Position numbers and translations under genes: made by a program. A stretch of DNA of 64,000 bases from Acidobacteriota bacterium (GTDB taxonomy: Bacteria > Acidobacteriota > UBA4820 > DSQY01), in assembly GCA_049967655.1 (NCBI GenBank), contig JBMFSH010000006.1, positions 57,791 through 121,790 on the forward strand, read 5' to 3'. Below, piece by piece: positions 36,595 to 51,090 of the stretch (positions within the stretch are counted from its first letter, which is position 1; the number at the start of each line of letters is the position of its first letter). The notes beneath the pieces are model-generated. The model saw only the letters and a program-made list of their open reading frames with translations, searched no databases and was not told the DNA's origin.

Positions 36595-37296
36595 GTGTTC
36601 GAAACCGTCCTGGAGAGACCGAAGGGAGCCGCGACGAGGGGGATGAAGGCGCTGCCGGCGGCGGTCATGGTCCATTTGGCGCTGGCCGCCGCGCTTCTGC
36701 TCGCCGCCCTCTTGGCGCCCATCCACCTTGAGCCGCCGCCCTTCCGGTTGACGGGAGTCATCATCCCCGTGACGCTCGCGTCCGTAGGGAGCGCCAAGGC
36801 GCCCGCCGAGCGGCCGGCGATCCGCAAACCGGCCACCGAACCCCATGGGCTCACCGCCCCCACCGAAGTCCCCAAGGGACTGTCCAAGGGCCGGCCGGCC
36901 TCGGAAGAAACACCCGCCGAGGCGGGGCCGGGCATCCCCGGCGGAGTGCCCGTCGAGCTTCTGGGGCAGGGCGGCCCTCCCGCCACGGCGCAACCTCAAG
37001 CCCCCAAGATCCTGCCCGCCTGGGCCGTCACGGCGCCGCACCTAGTGCGCCAGGTTACCCCGGCCTATCCGGAGGCCGCTCGGGCCATGGGCCTGACGGG
37101 CAAGGTCCTGCTGCAGATCGTCGTGAACCAGGAGGGACGGGTGGTGAGCGTGGAGGTCATGCAGGCGAGCAACCCTATCTTCGTCGATTCCGCCGTCGCA
37201 GCCGTCCGACAATGGCAGTACAGCCACCCCATCGACGCCGGAGGCCAGTCCGTCGCCTGCTACGTCACCGTGCTGGTGAGCTTCGCCATGGAGTGA
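36595..37296 (+). CDS. Stand-alone TonB-family energy transducer
   Basis: TM with V.VH, Pro-rich linker, P.YP..AR...G.V.L...V...G.V TonB C-terminal domain. Confidence 0.85.
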   Translation: MFETVLERPKGAATRGMKALPAAVMVHLALAAALLLAALLAPIHLEPPPFRLTGVIIPVTLASVGSAKAPAERPAIRKPATEPHGLTAPTEVPKGLSKGRPASEETPAEAGPGIPGGVPVELLGQGGPPATAQPQAPKILPAWAVTAPHLVRQVTPAYPEAARAMGLTGKVLLQIVVNQEGRVVSVEVMQASNPIFVDSAVAAVRQWQYSHPIDAGGQSVACYVTVLVSFAME

Positions 37297-37527
37297 GAGG
37301 GGCCTGCCGCTGGGACTCTCAGCGATGACAAAACGAGAACGCCGTTCTCGATTTGCACAGAACTTCGTACCCCCCCCCGCAAGGGCCTTACTCTTGAGAA
37401 ACCAATGGGTTGCTAACCATGACAGGCAAGAAGAGAGGACAGGACGTAACCTCCGTACACGTTGCCCTATTTGATCGTCGCCTTGCCAACCATTGATTTT
37501 CCTGGCAATTTCATGCACCCTCGCATC

Positions 37528-37543
37528 TGGAATGTATTTTGCT
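37528..37543 (+). promoter_or_regulatory. sigma54-type (-24/-12) promoter
   Basis: TGGAATGTATTTTGCT = GG-N10-GC with TTTGCT -12 box; IHF-like sites at 37400-37412 and 37486-37498. Confidence 0.55.
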
Positions 37544-37605
37544 AAACCACTTCATGGAGTCGGGGCAGGGGAAAAATCTTGGCCAAAAAGCAAAGGAGGT
37601 AGCCC

Positions 37606-37803
37606 ATGAAGCAGAAACTCTCTCTTGTGGCCATCGCTTTGGGACTGTTCATAGCGGTGCTGACTCTTTTCTCGCTGCGTACTCAGGCGGCCCAGACTAC
37701 CAGGTGCTGGCCTGGGTACATCTCCGATTTCCAATATACCTGTAGTCCGGAGGCTAGCTTGAATTGCACCGGCTGTTCGGTCGTCATCACGAAAACGCCA
37801 TAA
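37606..37803 (+). CDS. Small secreted Cys-rich peptide (65 aa precursor)
   Basis: Strong AAGGAGG RBS; Sec signal ending TQA/A; mature part has 4 Cys including CTGC. Confidence 0.8.
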   Translation: MKQKLSLVAIALGLFIAVLTLFSLRTQAAQTTRCWPGYISDFQYTCSPEASLNCTGCSVVITKTP

Positions 37804-37883
37804 GGCTTCCCTCAAGCTTACCAAACGGAACTGGCCGCGCAGGAACGCCCCCCCGGGCTCCCCACCTTGCGCGGAGGAATCTC

Positions 37884-38954
37884 ATGAAGCGGAACGGTTG
37901 GATTGGCGCCGGACTATTCCTTATGGTCTTATTCTTCGGGGGGCGGATCGTGGCCGGAGCCTCAGCACAGGCCCCTCCCAAGGTTTGTTCTCTGTCCCGC
38001 GTAAGCTGGCCTTTTCTTCCGAGGGACGTGGAGGGGCTCGCGGTAGATGCGGGGAACACCCTTTGGTGCCTGGACCGCAGCGGGGCGCGTATCTTGGTGG
38101 CTTCAGCGGAGGGAAAACTCCTTCATACCGTCGGTTCACCTGGCATCAACGAAGGGGAACTGCAGGACCCCCTCACCCTCAGCCTGGAACCGAACAGCCG
38201 CCGGGCCGCCGTGGCCGACACCGCGTCAAACCTGGTTTTCTTCGATATGGACTCGGGCCATTACCTTTATACTCTCTATGGCCTTCAGGCTTACAACCTC
38301 TTCGCCTTCTTTCTGACGCCTCATCGTATTGTCTTTACCAATTGGGGAATCCCAAGGGAAATGTCACCGGAGCCCCCTTTCTTCGCCATGCCTCTCTTTT
38401 CCGTGAACTTCAAGGGGGAAGATCTCCAGGAAGCTCGCGGCTGCGAGAAGCTCCTCGTCACCGCCCAGGACCAAGGCTCCTTTTGCCTGTTCCAGCGGGG
38501 ATTTTCCGCCCTCTTCCGGCAGGGGCTCTGGGTTGTTTGCAAAAGTTTGCCTATGCAGCTTCTCTTGGTAGATGGGCAGGGAAACGTCGTCAAGAAGGGG
38601 GCCCCTATCGGCCGCATCTCGCCCTTTCCAGTGTCCCGTTTCTTGGAAAGTGGATTTCAGTTGAAAACGCTCCACGACATCCCTCACGCCACTGGGGTTG
38701 TCGTCTGGAGGGGACGCATTGGAGTTCTATGGCAGGAGCCACCTGTGCCAGGGCCGCAGCTGCGTCTGCGGTGGTTCGATGATACCTTGAAACCACTCGG
38801 CGAAACATCGCTGGACCTTGGCAAAACGCTCGCCCCCCAGGATGTGGTTATGGCGTCGCTATGCGACGGCGAGGGAAGGCTTTACGTACTGGTGGTTCAC
38901 CGTGGTGGCTTGCCGCCAGGTCAATCCACTCTCTACCGAGGGCGACTGCCATGA
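37884..38954 (+). CDS. Secreted NHL-like / six-bladed beta-propeller protein
   Basis: Signal peptide; LAVD..N.LW.LD...RI.V...G......G..G...GEL..P NHL-type blade; GGAGG RBS. Confidence 0.7.
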   Translation: MKRNGWIGAGLFLMVLFFGGRIVAGASAQAPPKVCSLSRVSWPFLPRDVEGLAVDAGNTLWCLDRSGARILVASAEGKLLHTVGSPGINEGELQDPLTLSLEPNSRRAAVADTASNLVFFDMDSGHYLYTLYGLQAYNLFAFFLTPHRIVFTNWGIPREMSPEPPFFAMPLFSVNFKGEDLQEARGCEKLLVTAQDQGSFCLFQRGFSALFRQGLWVVCKSLPMQLLLVDGQGNVVKKGAPIGRISPFPVSRFLESGFQLKTLHDIPHATGVVVWRGRIGVLWQEPPVPGPQLRLRWFDDTLKPLGETSLDLGKTLAPQDVVMASLCDGEGRLYVLVVHRGGLPPGQSTLYRGRLP

Positions 38955-39484
38955 TACTCATCGACGGTCGGCGCCTTATCCTGGTGACAGGGGCACTGAT
39001 GGTCGGCCTGGTCCTGATCGGCTGCCGGCACCAAGTAGCGAATGGAAGCCCCATCACCCTTTCGGGAGGGAGATTGGCTCTTAGCGCCTCGGCGCAGGTT
39101 TCTCTCAAGAACACGCCCTATATAGGCCTGTTGATCGTTCCCGCCGAAGGTTGCCCTTGTCGATGGACAACGGCTTACGTGGCACTCGTGGAGGCCGAAA
39201 AGGGGATTAAAACGCCATGTGTCACTCGCGTGGTTCTAGAGGGAGGCAATGAACGCACCCTTCAGGAGCTGAAACAGGAAGGCTTGCCGCCGGAGAATTT
39301 GATCCTAGATCAAGAAGGGCGGTTGGCTGCCTCTCTCGGTCTTGGCTATTCGGATCTGCCCTATTGGACCCTATGGAGACACGACGGAAGTTGGACGCTG
39401 GTTCTGGCAGCTCGCCTCTCGGCAGTCCACGACGACCAAGCGTTGTTGGGGCGGCTCTTGACCACCCTACACGGATTCTCCTGA
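38951..39484 (+). CDS. Lipoprotein with thioredoxin-like (TlpA/ResA-like) fold and CxC motif
   Basis: ATGA overlap; lipobox LIGC; beta strand then GCPC; LILDQEGRLAASLGL...P.WTLW resembles the TlpA C-terminal cis-Pro region. Confidence 0.6.
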   Translation: MILIDGRRLILVTGALMVGLVLIGCRHQVANGSPITLSGGRLALSASAQVSLKNTPYIGLLIVPAEGCPCRWTTAYVALVEAEKGIKTPCVTRVVLEGGNERTLQELKQEGLPPENLILDQEGRLAASLGLGYSDLPYWTLWRHDGSWTLVLAARLSAVHDDQALLGRLLTTLHGFS

Positions 39485-39544
39485 GCCCAAGACGAGGCAC
39501 ATTCTTGTTTCGCAGTCCGCTTTCAGCGCAAAGGGGTGGGAGTC

Positions 39545-42223
39545 ATGATTTGCAGACACTGGATAGGGAGGTTGGTGCTGCCGTTGGCGGCTTGTCTTTT
39601 TGGAGGGGCTGTATACGCCGGAGGTCCCTTCCTATGGGCCGTCGGCCTTTCGCCGGCGGAGTCTCCCCAGGAGTTGCCGCCGGAGCACCGGCCCATGGCG
39701 GCGCCCGAGGCATGGGTGATGGCGGAAGGAGGTGATGTGCTTGCCCTAGTGGCCAAGGGCCAGCCCATTCCTTCGTCCCTCTCCCGGCATCACCCGCTCC
39801 TCGTGACGCTGGCGGGTCCCTCGCCCGAGGTCGTGGCGGACGTGCCGCTCCAGTGGCGTCCCGATGGAGTGCCCAACCTGCCCCCCCCCTTCGGCCGCGT
39901 GACCACAGGCAAGGGCGGCACCGTCACCCTCTATCCTCCCCAAGGAGCAGGCGTCGTGGTGTGGGTGGACGATCCCCGCTACGAGCCCGGCTTCGTCCAC
40001 GTACCGGCGGGGAGTAGCGTGGCCTCGCTCGCACTCGTTCCTTGCGCTAAACCTTTCCTGCGAATCACCGATGAGGCCGGCCGTGAGTTGGCGGACGCTT
40101 CGCTCACGGCCATCCGCCCGGACGCCCTTGCTTCGCCCATCAGCCTCTTCGCCGCGGCCTCGGGCTCACCCGCGCTTCACCTCAGGGCCGACGGGGCGGG
40201 CCGGGTCCTTCTCCCCGAAGATCATGCTGCGCTGGCTGGGTGGATTACGGCGTTGGGCTATGCTCCGCTTCGTCTGGTCTCCCTTCGCGGGATTTCCGGC
40301 CACTCATGCCTCCTGCACCGGGCAAACCGATGCACGGTCAGCCTCCTAGATGGTTCTACCCACCGCCCCTTAAGCACCGCCCGATGGTCCGTCGGCTGGA
40401 GCCCGAAGGGGCTGCCCTGGGTTGTGCTCGGCGAGAACTCGTCCTGGAGTCCCCCGGACGGAGCCGTCTACCTACCCCATTTCCCTTGTGCCCTCAGCTT
40501 CCAGGCCGAGGGACACGCTTCGGTGGTGCTTCGGCTGGACGGCCCACCCCAGAACGGCTCTCTGCGTGTGGAACTGCCTGCCGGCATCGAGATCCAGGGA
40601 GTTGTCCAAGATCCTCAGCGGCAACCGGTGGCTGGCGCCACCGTACTAGCAGGCGATCCGCTCGATGCGGGAGCACGCTCCACCGAAACTGACGCCAAGG
40701 GGCGGTTCACCCTCGCCGGTCTTCCCGCCAGCGGAAGCTCGTTGCGCTTGACGGCCGAAGCGGACGGGTTTCTGCCCACCAGCACCGGTCCTCTGCCCCT
40801 TCGCAGCCAAAAGGGAGTGGTGATCCAACTGCGAACCGGTGCCGTCGTGACGGGAAGCCTGGTGGATGCCGATACGCTGCAACCCATTCCCCACGGAAAG
40901 GTGACCCTTGCTCCCGCGGACAATCAGCCATTTCAACCTGAGGCGCTGCAAGCCGTGACAGGGGAGGAGGGTAGCTTCCGACTGCAGGGTTTGGAGCCGG
41001 GGCCTTACACGCTGAATGCTTACGCCCGGGGGTGGACGTCGGCCAGCAAGGACATCACGGCCATCGCGGCAGCTCCCACGGAGGTGGGCACCATTGCACT
41101 CTCATCCCACCCCCAGGTGACGGGCAGCCTCTCCCGAACGGACGGCAACGACCTCTCCTCCAGCGCCCAAGTTTGGCTCGAGCGCAAGCTTTCCTATCAC
41201 GACGTGACGAGCCCAGGAGGCCTCTCCCGCCTGGAGGGTCACATCGGCAAGGACGGCCGCTTCGTCATCCGGGGTGTGGCCGAAGGGCGCTACCTACTGA
41301 GAGCTGTCGACGGTGACCTGAGGGCCACGGTCGGGCCCTTCCGAGTGGAGGGTGCGGACCAGGATCTTGGCGAGGTTTCCCTTCGAAAAGGCGCCGCGCT
41401 CAATGGGACGCTGTCGGGCCAGGAGGATTTCACCGGCTGGCGGGTGGAGCTGCTCGCTCAAGCCTTCGACCCCTCTCCACCGGTGGAAACCACGGGTCAG
41501 GACGGCGGGTTCGACTTCGGCACGGTCAACCCGGGCGATTACCGTCTGGAGGCCTTCTCGCCCTTGTCAAGCCAGCCTACGGCCATGCGGGCCCTTTCCT
41601 TGGCATCGGGAGACAAAGCCCATGTTGTGCTTCCGGTGGACGGTGTAACCGTATCCATCCTCGTGGAGGTGCAGGGGCAAGTGGCGGCCGACGCCTCCCT
41701 GCTGGTGAGACCACCCTCCTCGGAGGCCTTCGACAACGGCGTCGTGCAAATCTCCGGCCCGAACGGCGTCATGACTCTGGGGTTGCCCACCACGAGCTCC
41801 AGCGGGCAGGCCGACGCCACGGGCATCGTCACCCTGAACAACGCCCCCACGGGAGCCGTCCAGGCCTACCTCTCTTGGAACGGCATGCAGTACATGGCGC
41901 CCTTCTCCATCCCCGCCGAACCGGCCTCCCTCCTCACGTTGAACTTTCAAGGGATCACCCTGCAGGGAACCGTCTCGACGGCGGATGGCCGCCCCCTGTC
42001 CGGCATTCAGGTGACGCTGGCCTACGAGGGGTTGGGTGCCTCGCCGGGCCAGAGCACCCTCACGGGGTTGGCTGGCACCTTTCAGTTCTCGGGATTGGGC
42101 GCTGGGAGCGTCCTTCTCTCCGCGCGCAGCAGCTCCGGTGCCACCGTCTCCCAGGAGGTCCCGCTCGCCGCGGATTCGCCGCCTACGCCGGTTCATCTGA
42201 TACTTGGAGGGCCTTCTCGGTGA
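39545..42223 (+). CDS. Large secreted protein with repeated carboxypeptidase-regulatory-like beta-sandwich domains
   Basis: Repeats of G.V.D..G.P..GA.V...TD..G.F...GL..G.Y.L.A.A.G. Confidence 0.8.
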   Translation: MICRHWIGRLVLPLAACLFGGAVYAGGPFLWAVGLSPAESPQELPPEHRPMAAPEAWVMAEGGDVLALVAKGQPIPSSLSRHHPLLVTLAGPSPEVVADVPLQWRPDGVPNLPPPFGRVTTGKGGTVTLYPPQGAGVVVWVDDPRYEPGFVHVPAGSSVASLALVPCAKPFLRITDEAGRELADASLTAIRPDALASPISLFAAASGSPALHLRADGAGRVLLPEDHAALAGWITALGYAPLRLVSLRGISGHSCLLHRANRCTVSLLDGSTHRPLSTARWSVGWSPKGLPWVVLGENSSWSPPDGAVYLPHFPCALSFQAEGHASVVLRLDGPPQNGSLRVELPAGIEIQGVVQDPQRQPVAGATVLAGDPLDAGARSTETDAKGRFTLAGLPASGSSLRLTAEADGFLPTSTGPLPLRSQKGVVIQLRTGAVVTGSLVDADTLQPIPHGKVTLAPADNQPFQPEALQAVTGEEGSFRLQGLEPGPYTLNAYARGWTSASKDITAIAAAPTEVGTIALSSHPQVTGSLSRTDGNDLSSSAQVWLERKLSYHDVTSPGGLSRLEGHIGKDGRFVIRGVAEGRYLLRAVDGDLRATVGPFRVEGADQDLGEVSLRKGAALNGTLSGQEDFTGWRVELLAQAFDPSPPVETTGQDGGFDFGTVNPGDYRLEAFSPLSSQPTAMRALSLASGDKAHVVLPVDGVTVSILVEVQGQVAADASLLVRPPSSEAFDNGVVQISGPNGVMTLGLPTTSSSGQADATGIVTLNNAPTGAVQAYLSWNGMQYMAPFSIPAEPASLLTLNFQGITLQGTVSTADGRPLSGIQVTLAYEGLGASPGQSTLTGLAGTFQFSGLGAGSVLLSARSSSGATVSQEVPLAADSPPTPVHLILGGPSR

Positions 42224-42241
42224 AAAGGCACAGACCCGCCA

Positions 42242-43252
42242 TCAAAAACGGGGCTGAAGAAGGTGAACAAAGAGCGGGTCCAGAGCGCAGGCGAGCATGA
42301 CGGCGAGGGCGAAGAGGTTGATCTGCATGAAGGCCGCGCCGGGCGAGAAGCCCTCCCCAGCCGCGAGCAGCTTGCGCGAGGCCCACGTCAGCCCGGCGGC
42401 GCAGAGCGCGAGCGCCACGACCGACGGAAGGGAGCGGACCACGTCGAAGAGGGGCAGGAGCAGGCTCGAAAAGGCGGTGGCCATCATCCAGACGCACGTG
42501 ATCCGCGAGAGCTGCACCGGAGAAAACACCTGCGTGAGGGTGGGAAAGCCGGCCCGCTCGTACTGATCGCCGTACTTGAGCAGCAGCAGCCAGAAGTGCG
42601 GGATCTGCCAGACGAAGAAGAAAAAGCCGAGGGCCAGCAGACCGCCGTCCGCCAGGCGCCCGCCGCCGGCCACCCAGCCGATGGCCGGGGGGATGGCGCC
42701 GATGATGGAGCCCGGAACCACCGCGAAGGCCGTGACCCTCTTGAGGGGCGTGTAGAGAAGGTTGTAGGAGGCCACGGCGGCGGCTCCCAGGAGCGCGCCG
42801 AGAGCGCCCACTCCCAGCAGCAGGACCGCCTCGCCCCCCGCCAGCAGAAGGAGGGAGACCAGGAGTCCCTCCGAAGGCGTAATCAGCCCCGCCGGGATGG
42901 GCCTTCTCCGCGTGCGCGCCATGAGAGCGTCGCTCTTCCACTCCTGCACCTCGTTGAGGGCCCCGGCGCCGCAGGAGAGCAGGAGGGTCCCCGCTAGGGC
43001 CACGACCATTTCCCAGTGGAGGGAGCGCGCCGCGAGCAGGTAGCCCGTGCCCGCCGAGAAGGTGGAGAGGACGGCGATGTTGAACTTGGTCAGGACCCGG
43101 AGCAGGCCGAGGGAGCCCCGGATGTCCCGCGTCAGGCTGCTCGGCTGGCCCGAGTCGATCGCGCCCGAAGACCGGGCGGCATCCCTTCCCGGCGCCGCGG
43201 GGAGCGCCGCCTCCCGGTTCCAGATCGCTGCCCTCGTCCTCGCGCCCGCCAT
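42242..43252 (-). CDS. ctaB: Protoheme IX farnesyltransferase (heme O synthase)
   Basis: ALN.V.E...D..M.RT..RPIP.G, YT.LKR, GAIPP..GW, WQIPHF. Confidence 0.92.
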   Translation of the reverse strand: MAGARTRAAIWNREAALPAAPGRDAARSSGAIDSGQPSSLTRDIRGSLGLLRVLTKFNIAVLSTFSAGTGYLLAARSLHWEMVVALAGTLLLSCGAGALNEVQEWKSDALMARTRRRPIPAGLITPSEGLLVSLLLLAGGEAVLLLGVGALGALLGAAAVASYNLLYTPLKRVTAFAVVPGSIIGAIPPAIGWVAGGGRLADGGLLALGFFFFVWQIPHFWLLLLKYGDQYERAGFPTLTQVFSPVQLSRITCVWMMATAFSSLLLPLFDVVRSLPSVVALALCAAGLTWASRKLLAAGEGFSPGAAFMQINLFALAVMLACALDPLFVHLLQPRF

Positions 43253-43263
43253 CGTGGCTCCCG

Positions 43264-44172
43264 CTACTTCAGCGTCTTGATATAAGCGATGAGGTCCTTC
43301 ACGTCCTGGGGCGTCAGATCCTTCTGCACCGGCATGACGTTGGCAGGATAGCTCTGCACGATATCCGCGTTGGGATCGAGGATGGAGCGCCTCAGGTAGT
43401 CGTCATCGGCCTTGACGGTGCGCGTCTTGCCGTTCGTGATAACCGTCACCTCGGAGTCGTAGAGCCCCTTCCACGTGGGGCCCACGATCCTGATCCCGGT
43501 GATGCTGTGGCAGCCGATGCAGCCCTTGGTCTTGTACAAAAGTTCGCCGTGGGCCGGACCGGAGGCGGCCTCTTGGGTGTTGTACCACTCGTTGAACTTG
43601 TCTCCCGGCATGATGACCACCCTGGCCATCATCAGGGGGTGTCCCTGGCCGCAATAGCTGGAACAGAGCAGGTCGTAGGTGCCGAGGTCGGTGGGGTCGA
43701 ACCAGGCATAGTTGTGCTTGTCCGGCACCACGTCCTCCTTCACGCCGAAGGCCGGGATGAAGAAGCCGTGGATCACGTCCAGTGAATGGAGGTTGCAGCG
43801 CACCGGTGTGTCGATGGGGAGCCGCAGCTCGCTGCTCACCTTGCCGTTCGGGTACTTGAACGACCAGGACCACTGGCGCGCTGTCACCTCCACCTGCATG
43901 GCATCGCGGGGCACCTCCCTCATCTGCTCCCAGCGCGTCCACCCGAAGTAGAACATGGAGAGGAACAGGAGGGTTGGGATGATGGTCCAGGTGGCCTCCA
44001 GGGCCACGTTGCCGTGGATGTCCTTGGGCCTGGGGTTCCTGCTCCGGCTGTAGCGGACGACGAAATAGATCATCGTCGCCGTGATGCCCACCAGAAAAAT
44101 GGCGGAGAGGGAAACGATGTAGAGGAAGACGTCAGTGACGCTCTGGGTCAGTGTCGTGGTGGCTGGATTCAT
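43264..44172 (-). CDS. coxB: Cytochrome c oxidase subunit II with fused cytochrome c
   Basis: LE.TWT.IP, QW.W.F.Y, DV.HGF, CSSYCGQGHPLM CuA site, CIGCH heme motif. Confidence 0.93.
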   Translation of the reverse strand: MNPATTTLTQSVTDVFLYIVSLSAIFLVGITATMIYFVVRYSRSRNPRPKDIHGNVALEATWTIIPTLLFLSMFYFGWTRWEQMREVPRDAMQVEVTARQWSWSFKYPNGKVSSELRLPIDTPVRCNLHSLDVIHGFFIPAFGVKEDVVPDKHNYAWFDPTDLGTYDLLCSSYCGQGHPLMMARVVIMPGDKFNEWYNTQEAASGPAHGELLYKTKGCIGCHSITGIRIVGPTWKGLYDSEVTVITNGKTRTVKADDDYLRRSILDPNADIVQSYPANVMPVQKDLTPQDVKDLIAYIKTLK

Positions 44173-44178
44173 GGACCG

Positions 44179-44484
44179 CTACCTCAGGGCCACGTCAAGA
44201 AAGGTCAGTCCGAGGAAGATGATGATGATGCACAGCGTCACCATCAGCATGATCCTGAAGAGGGTCTTCTCGTACTTCAGGTGCATGAAGAAGAAGACCA
44301 CGAGCGCCGCCTTGAGCGGGCTGATGATGAAGGCCGCCAAGGAGTTCCATCGCCCTCCGCCCATGTGGAGCAGGGAGATGGAGGAGAGCAGGAGGGTGAG
44401 CCCCACCAGGGCCGCCCATACGAGGGTGTAGGTGGTGTAGCTGACGACGTGGATCTCTTCGGTCGCTTCGTGAGCCACGGCCAT
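44179..44484 (-). CDS. Cytochrome c oxidase subunit IV
   Basis: Three TM segments, KAALV..FFMHLKYE. Confidence 0.88.
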   Translation of the reverse strand: MAVAHEATEEIHVVSYTTYTLVWAALVGLTLLLSSISLLHMGGGRWNSLAAFIISPLKAALVVFFFMHLKYEKTLFRIMLMVTLCIIIIFLGLTFLDVALR

Positions 44485-44490
44485 CCCCCC

Positions 44491-45126
44491 TTACGCCGCC
44501 AAATAGAAGAGCGGAAGCAGGAAGATCCAGATGATGTCCACGAGGTGCCAATACAGCGCGGCGTTCTCCAGGAAGACGAAGTGCTCCTGGGTGACCTTTC
44601 CGCGCGCCATCAGGATGAGCGCGGCGGTGAGCACGGCGATGCCGGCGATGACGTGCAGACCGTGCAGCCCCGTCATGACGTAATAGAGCGAGAAGAAAAG
44701 CTGTTCCCCCGGTTTGCCTTGGAGCAGATGGGAATGGGGGAAGTAGCCTTGGCGGATGTGGCCGCTCCACTCCACGGCCTTGACGATCATGAAGACCACG
44801 CCGGTCAGGATGGTCGCCCCCACGAGCCCCATGGCCAGCTTCCTTCGGCCCCGCTGCAGCGCCGTGATGGAACTGGCCACGGCGAAGCTGCCCGTGAGCA
44901 GGACCAGCGTGTTGGCCACCCCCAGGAGGGCGTCCATGTGGCTGCCGCCGGCGCTGAAGGCTCGCGGATGATCGGCCCTGTACACGGCGTACAGGACGAA
45001 CAGCCCGCCGAAGAGCATGCACTCCGAGAAGAGGAAGAGCCACATGCCGAGCTTGGCGCCCCCGTAGTCCCTGTGTTCCTCGCGGGTGTGTTCGGCTCGC
45101 CCCGTTTCCGCAGCCACGTCGCTCAT
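44491..45126 (-). CDS. coxC: Cytochrome c oxidase subunit III
   Basis: GMWLFL.SE...[20 protein letters not shown]. Confidence 0.93.
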
Positions 45127-46754
45127 GATGCGAACGCTCCTTCAAAGTCATAGGCCTTTTCGGGGATCGTGGGGGGTTCCAGGAAGTTCTCGGTGGGCGG
45201 AGGCGAGGGGATCTGCCACTCGAGCGTCACGCCGCCCCACGGGTTATCGCCGGCCTTTTCGCCCTTGAACACGGATAGGATCAGGTTGGTGAAGACCACC
45301 AGGATCCCCGCGATCATGATCCAGGAGCCCACCGTGGCGATCACGTGGGGCGTCTGAAACCGAGGGAGGTAGAAGGCGTAGCGCCGGGGCATCCCCATGA
45401 CGCCGAGCACGAACATGGTGAAGTAGAAGAGGTTGAAGCCCGTGAACAGGAGGGCCCAGCCGATGTAGGCCGCGCTCCGGTTGTACATCCGGCCGAACAT
45501 CTTGGGCAGCCAGTAGTGCAGGGCCCCGAAAAAGGCGAAGGCCGCCCCGCCGAAGATCACGTAATGGAAGTGGGCCACCACGAAGTAGGTATCGTGAAGC
45601 ATGACGTTCAAGGCCAGGGCGCCGAGAATCAAGCCGGTCAGTCCGCCCACGGAGAAGAGAAAGATGAAGCTGAGGGCGTAGAGCATGGGCGGTTCGAGCG
45701 CGATGGAGCCCTTGTAGAGCGTCGCCGTCCAGTTGAAGACCTTGATGGCGCTGGGAACGGCCACCAGGAAGGTGAGGAGCGAGAAGACCGTGGCCGCCTC
45801 GTCGCTGAGGCCCGAGGTGAACATGTGGTGGGCCCAGACCAGGGAGCCCAGGAGCGCGATGCCCATGGAGGACCAGACGATGGCGGTGTAGCCGAAAATG
45901 GTCCTGCGCGCGAAGGTGGGGATCATCTCCGAGATGAGGCCCATGGCGGGCAGGATCATGATGTAGACCGCGGGGTGGGAGTACATCCAGAACAGGTGCT
46001 GGTAGAGGAGCGGATCGCCGCCCATGGCCGGGTTGAAGATCCCCACGTGGAAGATCCTCTCCACGAAAATCAGCAGCATGGTGATGCCGAGGACCGGCGT
46101 GGCTAGGACCTGCACCCACGAGGTGGCGTAGAGGGCCCACGGGAAGAGGGGCATCTTGAACCAGCCCATGCCCGGCGCCCGCATCCGGTGCATGGTCGTG
46201 ATGAAGTTGATTCCCGTGAGGATCGAGGAGAACCCCAGCACGAAGACGCCGAAGACGGCCATGGGGATGTCGGCGTGCGTCCTCAGACTGTAGGGGGCGT
46301 AGAAGGTCCAGCCCGTGTCCGGCAGGCCGCTCCCGAAAAGGGAGGCGAGGGCGATGACGGCCCCGGTCACGTAGAGCCACCAGGAGAGCAGGTTGAGCCT
46401 CGGGAAGGCCACGTCCTTGGCGCCGATCATGATGGGCATGAAGAAGTTGCCCAGGGATCCGGGGACGGCCGGAATGATGAAGAGGAAGATCATGATCACG
46501 CCGTGCAGCGTGAACAGGGCGTTGTAATAATCCGCGTTCTTGAAGAGCTCGCCGTGGGGCGAGAGCATCTGCAGGCGCATGAGGAAGCCCAGCGACATCC
46601 CCACGAAGAAGAAGAAGAGCGTGGAGACCAGGTAGAGGATTCCGATCCGCTTGTGGTCCGTGGAGAAGATCCAGCCGAAGATGCCGCTGAACCGGCCGTG
46701 ATCCTCAAGGTAGCTCGCCGCGCCCGCGCGCGGCGGCGATTCGGAAGTCGTCAT
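45123..46754 (-). CDS. coxA: Cytochrome c oxidase subunit I, type A2
   Basis: TDHKRIG, T.HG, GWT.Y.P, W.YSHPAVY (YS = A2 type), [22 protein letters not shown]. Confidence 0.96.
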
Positions 46755-47590
46755 GTTCGGGACCTCGCCTCTCCGTGCTTGACCTTGCGGTTGGGGTTCG
46801 TGAACACCAGGAACGCCACGAAAGCGAGTGCTGACAAGATGACCGCCACGCCCGAGAGGGCCATGACCCTCGAAACGAGCACGCTGCCCTTGGGCCGGAT
46901 GCTGAAGCAGGAGAGGAGCTCACCCACGATCCTGCTGCCGGTCTTCTCTTTGGCCGCGTCGCCGATGGCCATCTGGAGGGCCGAGGGAACGTAGCTGACG
47001 CCATAGAGGTACTGGACCACCTTGCCCTTCGGGCTGAGCACGATGAGGGTGGCGGGGTGGATGTACATGTCCTGGTCCTTCTGGTAGCTGAAGCCCACGG
47101 CATCGGTGACCTTGTCGATGTCGGCCTTGTCGCCCGAGAGGAAGAGCCAGTCCTGAGGCTGGATGGGCCTCTTCACGAGGGCCATGTAGTTGCGCTTCTT
47201 GTCCGCCAGGATCTGCGGCGTATCCGTGGGGTCGAAGCTGATGGAGATGATCTGGTAGTCCTTGCCGGGATCGAGGGGCATTCGGTTCACCACGCCCGCC
47301 ACCCCCTCCAGCAGGCGCGGGCAGATGCCGGCGCACCGTGAGTAGAAGAGGGCCAGGACCGTGGGCTTGGTCATGACCTGCCCGAGGGTGACCTCACGGC
47401 CCTGCGAATCCGTGAACTTGGCGTCCAGGGGAACCTGGGCGCCCAGCTTCTCGGTCACGCCCTCGACGGTGATCTTGCCGGGGGCCTGGGCCATGACCGC
47501 GGCCGCCATCACGAGCCCGAGGCCCGCCGTCCACGCCACCCGCAAGGCGCGGCGGCCAGAACGCACCAACTTCCGTTCTTCTCTCTTCAT
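46751..47590 (-). CDS. SCO1/SenC-family copper chaperone
   Basis: E.LG.QVPLD..F.D..G, CAGIC, SFDP.DT, Y.HP. Confidence 0.88.
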
Positions 47591-47862
47591 GGTCCTGCAT
47601 CACCTAGGAATCGCGCGTACGTCTCGTATTTTTGGGGGGACGGGCCGCCGCCGCCGGCGCCCCTTCGGGAAGCTTCATTCTTCCCGCCCTGCCGTCCGGT
47701 TCAACTTCCCGCGCCTGCGCTTGGGAAGCCGTTCCGCTCCCTCTCCAGTCCTTGGGGAGCGGCTCCCTCACCCGCCGCGGGGCTCGCATGGATAGTGAAA
47801 CAGCCGATGAACGAGATTATTCTCGCGCGCGGGGCGAGGGCGACGGGGTACGTCCCCCGCCC

Positions 47863-48795
47863 TCAAGCCCCTTCCCGGCGGGCCTGCGGCGGAGACCCAG
47901 CACCCGTCGGGCCGGCCAGACCCGCCAGCTCTTGCTGGAAGAGCTGCCACTGCCGGGCATCAAGGCTGGCCGCCGCCGGATCCAGGCCGTTGTTGGGCGG
48001 GTCCGCCACGGCGGCGCGAACGAGGGCATCCAGATCGCTTTGCCAATTGGGGACCTGGGCCAGGACGCGCGCCGCTCGGCCCGGATCCTTCACGAGCCGC
48101 CTGACGAGCCGCGCCCCTTGGCTGTCGTCATCGGGCGGAGGCATGGGGATGGCGGGGGGCTGCTTGTAGTCGGCCGCCATGTGCTTCATGACCGTCGGGA
48201 CCGCCACCTTGTTGGGCGTCTCGCTCCCCTTGGAGAGGTTGAACTCCTTGTCCAGCGCCGCGATCTGCTGCGGCGTGTCCTTGCCGTGGTCGAAGTGGCC
48301 GAGGGACTGCACGTAGTGGGCCAGGGCGAAGCGGTCCATGGGCGTCAGGGTGTCGTAGGAGGCCATGCCCGTCCCAGCCACCCCTTTCGAGAGGGTTCGG
48401 TAGATGTCGGCGATGGTGTAGCCGTTGGTCCAGCCGTTGGGGCTCGTGAAATTGCGCGGTTTCGGATTGAAGGCCACGGCGGCCGGCCCGTTTCCCTGGC
48501 CCGCCGGGCCGTGGCAGGCCACGCAGTTGGCCTGGAAGAGCTTCTCTCCCTGGGCCACCGCATTGGGCGTGGATTGGAAGGCGTCGTCCAGGTCTATCCC
48601 GGGTTTCTGGTTGCCCTTCACGGTGGGAAAGATCGTGGGGTCCGAGGGGACCGCCGTGGCCTCCCTCCACTCCTTTTGCTGCTTGGAGATGAGGCCGCCC
48701 TTGGGCAGGAGCATGAAACCGAGGATCGCATAGAGGCCGGCCAGCACGAGGACCAGCGCTACCACGGAAAGGGCCTGCTGCTGCTTCTTGTTCAT
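47863..48795 (-). CDS. Membrane-anchored monoheme cytochrome c
   Basis: N-terminal TM, G..LF..NCVACHG, PRNFT, G..GT.M.S. Confidence 0.85.
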   Translation of the reverse strand: MNKKQQQALSVVALVLVLAGLYAILGFMLLPKGGLISKQQKEWREATAVPSDPTIFPTVKGNQKPGIDLDDAFQSTPNAVAQGEKLFQANCVACHGPAGQGNGPAAVAFNPKPRNFTSPNGWTNGYTIADIYRTLSKGVAGTGMASYDTLTPMDRFALAHYVQSLGHFDHGKDTPQQIAALDKEFNLSKGSETPNKVAVPTVMKHMAADYKQPPAIPMPPPDDDSQGARLVRRLVKDPGRAARVLAQVPNWQSDLDALVRAAVADPPNNGLDPAAASLDARQWQLFQQELAGLAGPTGAGSPPQARREGA

Positions 48796-48811
48796 CGGTC
48801 GCGCCTTTCGC

Positions 48812-49963
48812 TCAAAGCCTGAATTCCAGCCCCTCTTGCAGGAAGGGGTCGCCCACCGGAGTGTCCTCGCCCTTGGCCATGGCGGCGCGGGCGGCGAGCA
48901 CGCCCAGCGGCAGGAAGAGGAGGGCGAAGGAGAGTTCGGGCCACCCCAGCCGGACCTTCGCACCCACCGCCGGGAAGATGAGCCAGTAGAGGTCGATCAG
49001 CATGAAGGCCAGGAGCCAGAGCGAGACCCACCGCAGGCGCTTGGGACTGGTCTTGGCCTTCCGGCTCACGAGAGCGATGAACGGGACGAAGAAGTGGCCG
49101 ATGCCCAGGATGAGCGACAGCGCCAGCCAGCCCCCGGTGGTTCGCTGCTTGAACCAGAAGACCTCCTCCGGCATGTCCCCGTACCACATGAGCATGTACT
49201 GGGCGAAGGCGATGTAGCCCCAGAAGACCGTGAAGGCGAAGAGAAAGCCGCCGAGGTTGTAGAGATGGTCCTTCGTGATCCCGGGCAGCCGCCCGCGGTT
49301 GTAAAGGTACAGCGTGCCCAGCGTGGTGGCGGCGAGCCCCGACAGGAAGGTCCCCGCGAAGAGGTAGACGCCGAAGATGTCGCTGTACCAGACGGGCTCC
49401 AGGCTGGAGATCCAGTCGAAGGCCACCGTGGTCAGCGTGAGGGCGAAGATGGCCAGCACCAGGGGCGCGTAGCGCCGAAGGCGAACGGTGATCATGGGGT
49501 CCCTGCTTCGGTCCTGCTCGAAGGAGCGCTTCACCACGAGCCGGTAGGCGATGAACCAGAGAGCCACGCAGGCCAGGGTCCGAAGGATGAAAAACGGGGT
49601 ATTGAGCCACGCGGATTTGAGCACGACCGCCGGCACCGACGCGCCCTCGGGCTTTGCCCACGGATAGAGCACGGGCAGGCACAGGAGGGCAGCCAGCACC
49701 AGGGGCGTGACCCACAGGGCCAGGCTGGAGAGGCGTTCGGGCACGCGCCTGAGGGGGACGCTCCAGATGGACTGGACCTGGTGCTCCAGGGCCACGATGA
49801 AGAGGCAGCCCAGGCCCACGGTAATGCCGAAGACCATCCAGACGAGCCAGTTCGCCCAGAAGCGCGCCGGCCCCTCGACGAAGTAGGTGGCCGCCGCTCC
49901 CGCCAAGCCCACGGCGGAAAGAAGGAGGAGGCTTCTGACCGTGGTCCCGCTTCCGCTGCTCAT
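48812..49963 (-). CDS. actF: Alternative complex III subunit F
   Basis: WSVPLRR..E, WLN.PFF.LR, DWI.SL...WYS.IFG, W.Y..F.QY.L.WY...PEE. Confidence 0.88.
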   Translation of the reverse strand: MSSGSGTTVRSLLLLSAVGLAGAAATYFVEGPARFWANWLVWMVFGITVGLGCLFIVALEHQVQSIWSVPLRRVPERLSSLALWVTPLVLAALLCLPVLYPWAKPEGASVPAVVLKSAWLNTPFFILRTLACVALWFIAYRLVVKRSFEQDRSRDPMITVRLRRYAPLVLAIFALTLTTVAFDWISSLEPVWYSDIFGVYLFAGTFLSGLAATTLGTLYLYNRGRLPGITKDHLYNLGGFLFAFTVFWGYIAFAQYMLMWYGDMPEEVFWFKQRTTGGWLALSLILGIGHFFVPFIALVSRKAKTSPKRLRWVSLWLLAFMLIDLYWLIFPAVGAKVRLGWPELSFALLFLPLGVLAARAAMAKGEDTPVGDPFLQEGLEFRL

Positions 49964-51090
49964 CGCACATCCTCCGGCTCTGCGTGCTGGGAGCGCTGCA
50001 AGGCCCTGACGTAATCCACGATGGCCCACCGGTCGCTGGCCGAGAGGTCCGCGGCGTAGCTGGGCATGGCTCCCTTTCCCTTGGCAATGACGTAGTAGAT
50101 GTAGCCGTCGGGCGCCTCGCGGTAGGTGGAGGCCTGGAGGTTGGCCGGCTTGGCCGTGTAGGCCGAGGTCAGCCACGGCTTGCCCGTCCCCAGGCGGTCG
50201 TGGCAGACGGCGCAGTGGTTGTTGAACAGCTCCCGCCCCCTGTGAAGGACTTCGGACGTCATCGGCAGTGGATTGATCAGCTCTTTGCCGGCCTCCTCCG
50301 GGCTCTTGGCCAGCAGCGGCATGTACCCCCGGGCCACGGTGCCGACGGGGGGCAGCTGCATGCCGTGGCCGTCCGCGAAGAAGGAGTCCGCCTTTTGCGC
50401 ATCGAGCCTGGGCTGCACCTCCATGTGGACCATGGGCGGAAGGGTCGGGTAGATCTTGATGGCCCAGGCCGTGCCGAAGCCCGTCACCACGCAGGCGGCG
50501 GTGATGCCCGAGAGGGTCTTGAGCCACCAGCCCAGGCTGGGAGGCGTCGAATCGGGGGCCGCCAGCACCTCCACCTCGGAGCCGCCCGTTTCCAGGAGCG
50601 CCGCGCTCGCCGCCTCCACGTCCAGCACCCCCTCCACCGGCATGATGAGGAGGCCGAACCTGTCCTTGGTGGTCCCGCGGATGGCCTTGGAACCCAGGAT
50701 GGGACTGCCGAAGAAGGGAAGCTTGTTGAAGAGGAAGAGCATGGCCAGCCCGGCGGTGAAGGTGGCGAAGAGCACAGTCACCTCGAACATGACCGGGACG
50801 AAGGCCTGCCAGGAGTTGAAGGGCTTGCCGCCGATCACCAGCGGGTAGTCCACGGCGCTCGTCCACCACTCGAAGAGGAAGCCGCTCACGGCCCCCAAGA
50901 CGGCCATGATGAAGACCAGCGTGCCCAGCCGCGATTTCTTCAGGCCCAGCGCCGCCTCCAGCCCGTGGACGGGGAAAGGCGTGTAGGCCTCCAGGTTGGA
51001 GAAGCCCCTGGCCTTGACCCCGGGGATCGCGTCCAGGAGGGCCTGCGCGGTGGGATAGAGGGCGAGGACTCCGAAGGTCGCCTCAGGCAT
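49960..51090 (-). CDS. actDE: Alternative complex III fused subunits D (DUF3341) and E (cytochrome c)
   Basis: YTPFPVHG, YP..IGGKP, FE.TVLF, then FFADG.GM..P..GTVARG and CAVCH. Confidence 0.88.
   Translation of the reverse strand: MPEATFGVLALYPTAQALLDAIPGVKARGFSNLEAYTPFPVHGLEAALGLKKSRLGTLVFIMAVLGAVSGFLFEWWTSAVDYPLVIGGKPFNSWQAFVPVMFEVTVLFATFTAGLAMLFLFNKLPFFGSPILGSKAIRGTTKDRFGLLIMPVEGVLDVEAASAALLETGGSEVEVLAAPDSTPPSLGWWLKTLSGITAACVVTGFGTAWAIKIYPTLPPMVHMEVQPRLDAQKADSFFADGHGMQLPPVGTVARGYMPLLAKSPEEAGKELINPLPMTSEVLHRGRELFNNHCAVCHDRLGTGKPWLTSAYTAKPANLQASTYREAPDGYIYYVIAKGKGAMPSYAADLSASDRWAIVDYVRALQRSQHAEPEDVR

Follow-up and report, generated by a model that had tools for sequence, protein, structure and literature searches.

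Here we describe a four-gene cassette in the genome of an Acidobacteriota bacterium (GTDB lineage Bacteria; Acidobacteriota; UBA4820; DSQY01; assembly GCA_049967655.1). It encodes a cysteine-rich mini-protein with a signal-like N-terminus, a predicted six-bladed NHL-like β-propeller, a lipoprotein with a probable thioredoxin-like (Trx-like) fold, and a long β-sandwich repeat protein that we call the stalk. The cassette lies within 64,000 nucleotides of contig JBMFSH010000006.1 (positions 57,791 to 121,790 of the forward strand), a stretch referred to below as the window, in whose coordinates all positions are given. The cassette is a discrete insertion, its propeller and stalk are fused into one chain in other genomes, and related loci carry similar stalks behind dissimilar propellers. 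We tentatively propose, with somewhat less than even confidence, that the mini-protein caps its own propeller and that the stalk displays this head as an allele-specific recognition module at the cell envelope. The features are as follows.

37297..42270, + strand: inserted cassette of about 4.97 kb; a tonB-like resident gene lies on its left, the 3′ end of a cyoE-like gene on its right.
37297..37605, + strand: leader region (GC content 0.52); a C9 run spans 37370-37378, and the ribosome-binding site AGGAGG lies at 37594-37599.
37606..37803, + strand: open reading frame (ORF) of a 65-residue precursor peptide with a signal-like N-terminus, four Cys and a mature part of 36-37 residues.
37884..38954, + strand: secreted-type six-bladed NHL-like β-propeller of 356 residues, with variable top-face loops and no conserved catalytic set.
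38951..39484, + strand: lipoprotein-like ORF of 177 residues with an invariant CxC and a conserved Pro where the thioredoxin cis-Pro is expected; optional.
39545..42223, + strand: secreted-type repeat protein of 892 residues (the stalk), predicted to form about ten transthyretin-like (CarboxypepD_reg/CnaB-like) β-sandwiches (PF13620, E 3e-43).
36595..37296, + strand: TonB_C protein (PF03544, E 8e-17), the resident left flank, outside the cassette.

The original prediction, made from the DNA letters, had joined five ORFs into one secreted-peptide system. All five were found where it had placed them, on the + strand, but TonB proved not to belong. In three of three same-genus genomes that do not have the cassette, 62 bases separate a TonB orthologue, 85-90% identical, from the gene that we take to be cyoE-like, and neither propeller nor stalk was found in these three genomes. 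Since TonB abuts the downstream gene directly there, the cassette is a 4.97-kb insertion of four genes and TonB is a resident neighbour, which we rejected as a cassette member. Same-genus DNA aligns with the window up to 37291 and resumes at 42272; metagenome contigs from runs X1 and X2 join 37291 to 42270/42272, representing the empty site, and the filled site is present at about 90% identity in runs X5 and X7. The final codons of the cyoE-like gene (42242-42272) were overwritten by the insertion, and same-genus orthologues of this gene stop earlier; in runs X5 and X7 yet another stretch, of 83 bases, occupies this position. No target-site duplication of more than 6 bases was found at the cassette ends, and there is no transposase inside. 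TonB-dependent transport or signalling was likewise rejected: TonB is not co-inherited, the cassette has no receptor, and the stalk has no barrel domain. The four-gene insertion contains no exporter and no enzyme modifying ribosomally synthesized and post-translationally modified peptides (RiPPs), as had been predicted. The predicted low GC content holds for the head genes (peptide 0.53, propeller 0.59, Trx-like 0.58) but not for the repeat gene (0.665, against 0.667 for the genome).

The cassette recurs. The same genome has two further copies (contigs C11 and C27), three in total, and the propeller is present in 10 of 25 genomes of the bacterial family, at 20 loci including one contig-edge fragment, with up to 5 matches in one genome (G017). 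A Cys peptide was found at 15 of the 18 loci checked upstream, or 15 of the 16 with enough upstream DNA; fewer than 200 bases precede the propeller at L037 and L044, and L002 and L048 (contig edge) were excluded. The stalk is next in 18/20 loci, and the Trx-like gene is present in 13/19. This recurrence supports the prediction that a secreted Cys peptide, a propeller, a Trx-like protein and a repeat protein form one conserved system, and answers the concern, raised with the prediction, that propeller homologues might lack upstream peptides.

Propeller and stalk are encoded as a single chain elsewhere. Genome G101 has a propeller-stalk fusion of 1339 residues, the start of which is overlapped by the peptide gene; G519 has a 1298-residue propeller-stalk frame with two tandem peptides upstream; and G184 (contig C5) gives a weak indication of a third fusion. 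As the two proteins are fused in other genomes, we take it that they act as one particle. Loci L037 and L039 have stalks that are 85% identical (87.6% at the DNA level) and propellers that are only 23% identical, and the Trx-like gene is present in L037 but not in L039. Domains 1-2 of these two stalks are 64-69% identical, the other domains 86-95%, and the propeller tree and a quickly built stalk tree place the two loci differently. The fusions, together with this pair of similar stalks and dissimilar propellers, indicate that heads are swapped on a conserved stalk. When all pairs were compared domain by domain, the N-terminal stalk domains were not singled out (rho 0.24-0.65, highest for domains 8-9), so that a docking site at this end of the stalk rests on the one swapped pair.

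The original prediction had called for a check of co-divergence between peptide and propeller, and peptide similarity indeed went with the propeller and not with the repeat protein. Among 13 loci, the partial correlation between peptide and propeller identity, controlling for the stalk, was r 0.32 (permutation p 0.018), whereas that between peptide and stalk identity, controlling for the propeller, was r 0.04 (p 0.41). Because the loci are kin, this co-variation is suggestive only. Given the swapping and the co-variation, the peptide, propeller and Trx-like protein may be regarded as an allelic head.

The peptide ORF, the smallest in the cassette, behaves as a real coding frame. Its AGGAGG lies six bases 5′ of the ATG; signal peptides and the cleavage site were judged by eye from the sequence, giving a mature part of 36 or 37 residues that ends in a hydrophobic, strand-like tail with Pro as the final residue. 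Of the 19 differences listed against a metagenome relative in run X8, 12 are third-position changes (p=0.007). Fourteen codons are changed, 8 of them silently, and two of these 8 code for Cys; all four Cys are kept, and no indels are listed. This pattern shows purifying selection on the frame. The arrangement is also more than chance: in the host genome a signal-like small ORF with at least two Cys precedes 6 of 1096 long ORFs, and two of these six pairs are the present cassette and its paralogue. Mature peptides of the family (15 sequences) have 30-45 residues, 2-6 Cys and a net charge of -3 to +1; after a hydrophobic alternating tail the C-terminal residue is Pro in 13 and Gly in one. Members with two Cys have lost Cys1 and Cys3 together, which hints at disulfide pairing 1-3 and 2-4. 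No Pfam or NCBIfam family covers the peptides, and an Atlas look-up returned leads below 0.9 only, among them an NVEALA cluster at 0.80, a mere lead.

The propeller model (predicted local distance difference test, pLDDT, 89.6) has six four-stranded blades. Its best structural match is the NHL domain of Brat (Z 25.3, root-mean-square deviation (rmsd) 3.2, 260 aligned residues), followed by PAL (Z 20.1), SOQ1 and NHLRC2 (Z 18.5-18.9) and teneurin NHL domains (Z 18.5). Conservation was counted after removal of the near-duplicates P0006, P0048, P0055 and P0064. D64 is the only invariant residue in 30 propeller sequences (D320 reaches 81%); those polar residues that are conserved belong to strands and bottom loops. 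The least conserved parts are the long top-face loops (mean BLOSUM 0.29-0.44, against about 1.0 for the bottom loops; 26 sequences), the faces having been assigned by strand order and topology rather than coordinates, with the convention of PMC6107167. In 26-30 propeller sequences there is no conserved His/Glu/Asn set of the PAL/SMP-30 metal or catalytic type. With one invariant residue, conserved polar residues away from the top face and variable top loops, the modelled propeller fits a binder rather than an enzyme. Generic NHL proteins dominated one word-indexed search for homologues, another gave back its query alone, and a full HMMER search gave mostly multi-NHL proteins, with single-stretch members of the family making up 23 of the best 150 matches, several of them identical to the input sequences. 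A close homologue of the same family carries the source label Acidobacteriota.

Of the cassette genes that for the stalk is the most conserved: over 120 pairs its mean pairwise identity is 35%, and that of the propeller 26%. Its model (pLDDT 83.4, predicted template modelling (TM) score 0.68) consists of about ten β-sandwiches, and single domains match carboxypeptidase D transthyretin-like, CnaB and pilin domains (Z 11.5-12.9, rmsd 1.5-2.3, about 80 residues aligned); a whole-chain Foldseek search returned only low-TM multi-domain matches. A lone Cys at stalk residue 315 (window 40487-40489) is kept in 15/17 stalks with no conserved partner Cys, and could link chains. The original prediction had left this most conserved protein without a role, even though it is fused to the propeller elsewhere.

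The lipoprotein-like ORF starts within the end of the propeller gene. Its lipobox-like Cys is conserved, and its CxC and Pro137 are invariant in 12/12 sequences. Pfam and PDB searches with it gave no match; the Atlas returned one cluster with 14% Redoxin. Lipoprotein-like ORFs also stand at the Trx position in five loci of other classes, three of them with CxxC, and a comparison with these distant CxxC partners in hhalign gave a weak link (P 57%, E 1e-4). The propeller and Trx-like profiles, when compared with each other, were unrelated. In another type of protein, MauE, CxC can serve as an active redox site, according to bioRxiv 10.64898/2026.03.05.709764. At L044 (1283-1834) about 24 codons of the Trx-like gene are exactly duplicated within it, which may be an assembly artefact.

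Among 401 genomes of the phylum, the full-length propeller subfamily was found in the organism's own family only. The stalk search reached further, to G184 (peptide, propeller and stalk) and G101, and a profile of the stalk C-terminus matched in 77/301 genomes of the class of G184 and 5/119 of the class of G101. A signal-bearing Cys peptide lies at most 3.5 kb upstream of the stalk in 23 of 40 inspected loci of other classes, at some of them between propeller and stalk, and 12 of 34 adjacent ORFs joined the propeller profile in the first round, 27 after two iterations. Eight more loci included the second clear fusion (that of G519), with peptides at three of the eight. For 10 loci of a family in another class, which were chosen by their peptide motif, 45 pairs give 80% conservation for the peptide core, 69% for the propeller and 58% for the stalk.

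Several loci deviate from this layout. L045 has two heads ahead of one stalk. At L037 (6162-6352) what is presumably the end of an insertion-sequence transposase occupies the site expected for the peptide gene. In one genus (L171-L175) stalk homologues stand behind a secreted protein of about 525 residues that matches the propeller only weakly, and our filter finds no peptide there; L174 has in its place a 171-residue Cys-containing secreted ORF. Secreted Cys peptides also occur upstream of the phylum's distant DUF5128-like propellers at 5 of 24 loci (L082, L083, L089, L090 and L093, one pair being duplicates); several are helical-looking with spaced Cys pairs, and two loci have two each. Flanking genes vary among loci, and no recurring regulator, transporter or enzyme was seen by inspection. 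In three genomes of one genus (L042, L045 and L046) the cassette follows a large secreted repeat protein and precedes a gene that we take to be uvrB-like. In the window it is followed by an ordinary minus-strand respiratory cluster (42242-51090), presumably of cytochrome oxidase and alternative-complex-III-like genes.

In 9 of 13 loci a -35-like hexamer is followed by a run of at least seven equal bases (7-14), whereas this combination occurs at 6 of 137 promoter-like sites counted as background in one genome, that of the present organism. Such homopolymers are also a feature of contingency loci for surface structures. The window has a C7 run (37848-37854) between the peptide and propeller genes, which in run X5 is at least 15-24 C long at the points where contigs break; the tract is possibly length-variable. 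Elsewhere in the same genome, G15 and G16 tracts directly follow TTGACA in other promoters (G000:C2:131630 and G000:C47:11934), which are candidates for further phase-variable loci.

Fusion of propeller and stalk implies one particle, and swapping and co-variation imply an allelic head; these two points lead us to a peptide-capped propeller on a stalk. The mini-protein, propeller and β-sandwich protein would be exported and assemble outside into one particle, with the mini-protein bound to its own propeller at the variable top face and the disulfides of the mini-protein set by the thioredoxin-like lipoprotein. The β-sandwich chain would hold this head at the cell envelope for allele-specific recognition, likely adhesion or discrimination of kin or partners, and homopolymers in promoters would switch the cassette on and off. 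The stalk domains resemble in fold those of CnaB/transthyretin stalked adhesins, pilins and teneurin-like proteins, which combine NHL and transthyretin-like domains (Z up to 12.9). Unlike these, the cassette has no sortase, membrane anchor, YD shell or toxin tip, and its variable element is a separate mini-protein.

Several observations weigh against this proposal. No membrane anchor is visible in the stalk, which may therefore be displayed at the surface or lie in the periplasm, and the two secretin genes of the genome make an outer-membrane route no more than possible. The partial correlation comes from 13 related loci and from short peptides that are hard to align; the top-face loops are variable in most propellers; and the thioredoxin fold of the lipoprotein, although probable, is a weakly supported prediction. 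The copy in the window lacks the promoter with -35 hexamer and homopolymer, and no clear -35/-10 pair was found around its C9 run. Finally, of the 15 peptide starts 4 are out of frame or missing, and at L035 propeller and stalk are present without a peptide. Broken starts and peptide loss are more in keeping with immunity, or with decay, than with a cap that is always needed.

The last point leads to bacteriocin-like antagonism, in which a released disulfide peptide would harm neighbours and the stalk-held propeller would be the cognate trap or immunity protein. Sec-exported class II bacteriocins are accompanied by immunity and thiol-oxidoreductase accessory genes, and the cassette resembles them in having a small disulfide peptide, a cognate neighbour, an optional Trx-like helper and a mobile, patchy distribution. 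Several divergent cassettes per genome, as in the present one and G017, the limited spread among family genomes and the swapping of heads would all suit such a role, as would peptide loss with retention of propeller and stalk. Against it, the mature peptides are neutral to acidic rather than cationic, in the class with the motif-picked loci the peptide core is conserved above propeller and stalk, and a conserved partner of 890 residues, a soluble propeller being carried on it, is left unexplained. Pfam and NCBIfam gave no match in the cassette to toxin, bacteriocin or RiPP precursor or enzyme families, and none of the five proteins (0/5) matched PADLOC anti-phage models. Toxin and immunity would thus account better for peptide loss but not for the stalk or for neutral, in places highly conserved, peptides, and we consider antagonism unlikely.

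A maturation machine, in which a propeller enzyme or chaperone and the Trx-like protein would turn the peptide into a released, RiPP-like product (for example by PAL-type amidation, or in an NHLRC2-like cleft between Trx domain and propeller), appears less likely still. The propeller does share its fold with PAL, NHLRC2 and SOQ1, and distant partners at the Trx position carry CxxC. NHLRC2 and SOQ1 likewise combine a six-bladed NHL propeller with a thioredoxin-like domain whose Cys motif is unusual, and the Trx motif of NHLRC2 faces the propeller cup, as described in PMC6107167. There, however, the domains are fused rather than operonic, the cleft is conserved and the motif is CCINC, whereas the cassette has separate genes, CxC, a variable top face, a peptide and a stalk. 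D64 as the sole invariant residue and the position of the conserved polar residues further speak against catalysis, as do the peptide ends, nearly all Pro and only once Gly, and the absence of the Trx-like gene at 6 of 19 loci.

The original prediction had favoured a peptide signal or toxin, and the allelic pairs lend this some support; the peptide charge and the lack of any transducer in the cassette do not. As a diffusible signal with the propeller as receptor, small disulfide-rich peptides ending in Pro would be stable and the allelic peptide-propeller pairs would be expected, but the cassette has no membrane-spanning or cytoplasmic signalling part, its flanking genes vary among loci and TonB is a resident neighbour; we regard this reading as improbable.

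More improbable yet is a periplasmic enzyme or metal-binding complex of the amine dehydrogenase type, with a small disulfide-rich subunit on a propeller. The large subunit of methylamine dehydrogenase, MauB, is a propeller. The small exported disulfide-rich subunit, MauA, and its dedicated thioredoxin-fold helper, MauD, required for six disulfides, resemble parts of the cassette (bioRxiv 10.64898/2026.03.05.709764). The mature peptides of the cassette are, however, far shorter than that subunit and have no conserved Trp (Trp is missing from 4/15 and His from 10/15); the insertion has no cofactor-forming gene; and the heme motif CxxCH occurs in 0/17 stalks. Six blades and a long stalk are further differences from methylamine dehydrogenase, and neither head swapping nor a variable top face would be expected of a metabolic enzyme. 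That the cassette is a decaying, currently functionless passenger island has a very slight chance of being right: broken peptide starts, a truncated propeller at L043 and a broken Trx-like gene at L045 would agree with it, but in the window each of the four frames is intact, most of the changed peptide codons are silent, and several classes retain the cassette.

For the proposed peptide-capped propeller on a stalk, the nearest relatives in layout are, as the original prediction had pointed out, the NVEALA loci. In Bacteroidota, NVEALA peptides (PF14055) stand beside DUF5128 (PF17170) or TolB_like (PF15869) propellers. Both there and here a signal-bearing Cys mini-protein precedes a six-bladed propeller, and a thioredoxin-like gene frequently accompanies them. 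The likeness is one of layout: none of eight full-length peptides matched PF14055 at E<=0.1 (P0002 not even at E<=1). For the propellers the result is mixed: 3 of 18 matched PF17170 (best E 6e-8), the window's own not among them, and 0/18 matched PF15869; the homologue of G184 passes the PF17170 cut-off. The present cassette differs in being defined by a conserved transthyretin-like stalk, at times fused, and its propeller has no lipobox. No paper describing NVEALA and DUF5128 loci, or a cassette such as the present one, was found in the literature searched, which did not extend to subscription journals and supplementary tables; an incidental hit concerned BF3164 (PMC1887533), and another teneurin-like toxins (PMC13018210). 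We rate the architecture as belonging to no described system; its parts have known folds, as predicted by modelling, and its function is putative.

Cassettes of a Cys peptide and a six-bladed propeller are common in several phyla, and their family names yield no paper in the literature searched. In the broadest form of our proposal, which we think rather unlikely as a whole, the present variant would be a widespread, phase-variable and polymorphic self/non-self apparatus of Acidobacteriota, in which a disulfide-locked mini-protein and its cognate propeller fit together as lock and key in a head that can be exchanged on a conserved multi-domain stalk, and would provide the structural key to this much larger undescribed class in Bacteroidota, Gemmatimonadota and Acidobacteriota. 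Unlike the simpler cassettes, the variant offers a propeller-stalk fusion that occurs naturally, a documented exchange of heads, empty and filled sites, and many allelic pairs; binding of cognate versus non-cognate partners is therefore directly testable. If the pairs are specific, they would also amount to a naturally occurring collection of small disulfide ligands, each with its matching receptor.

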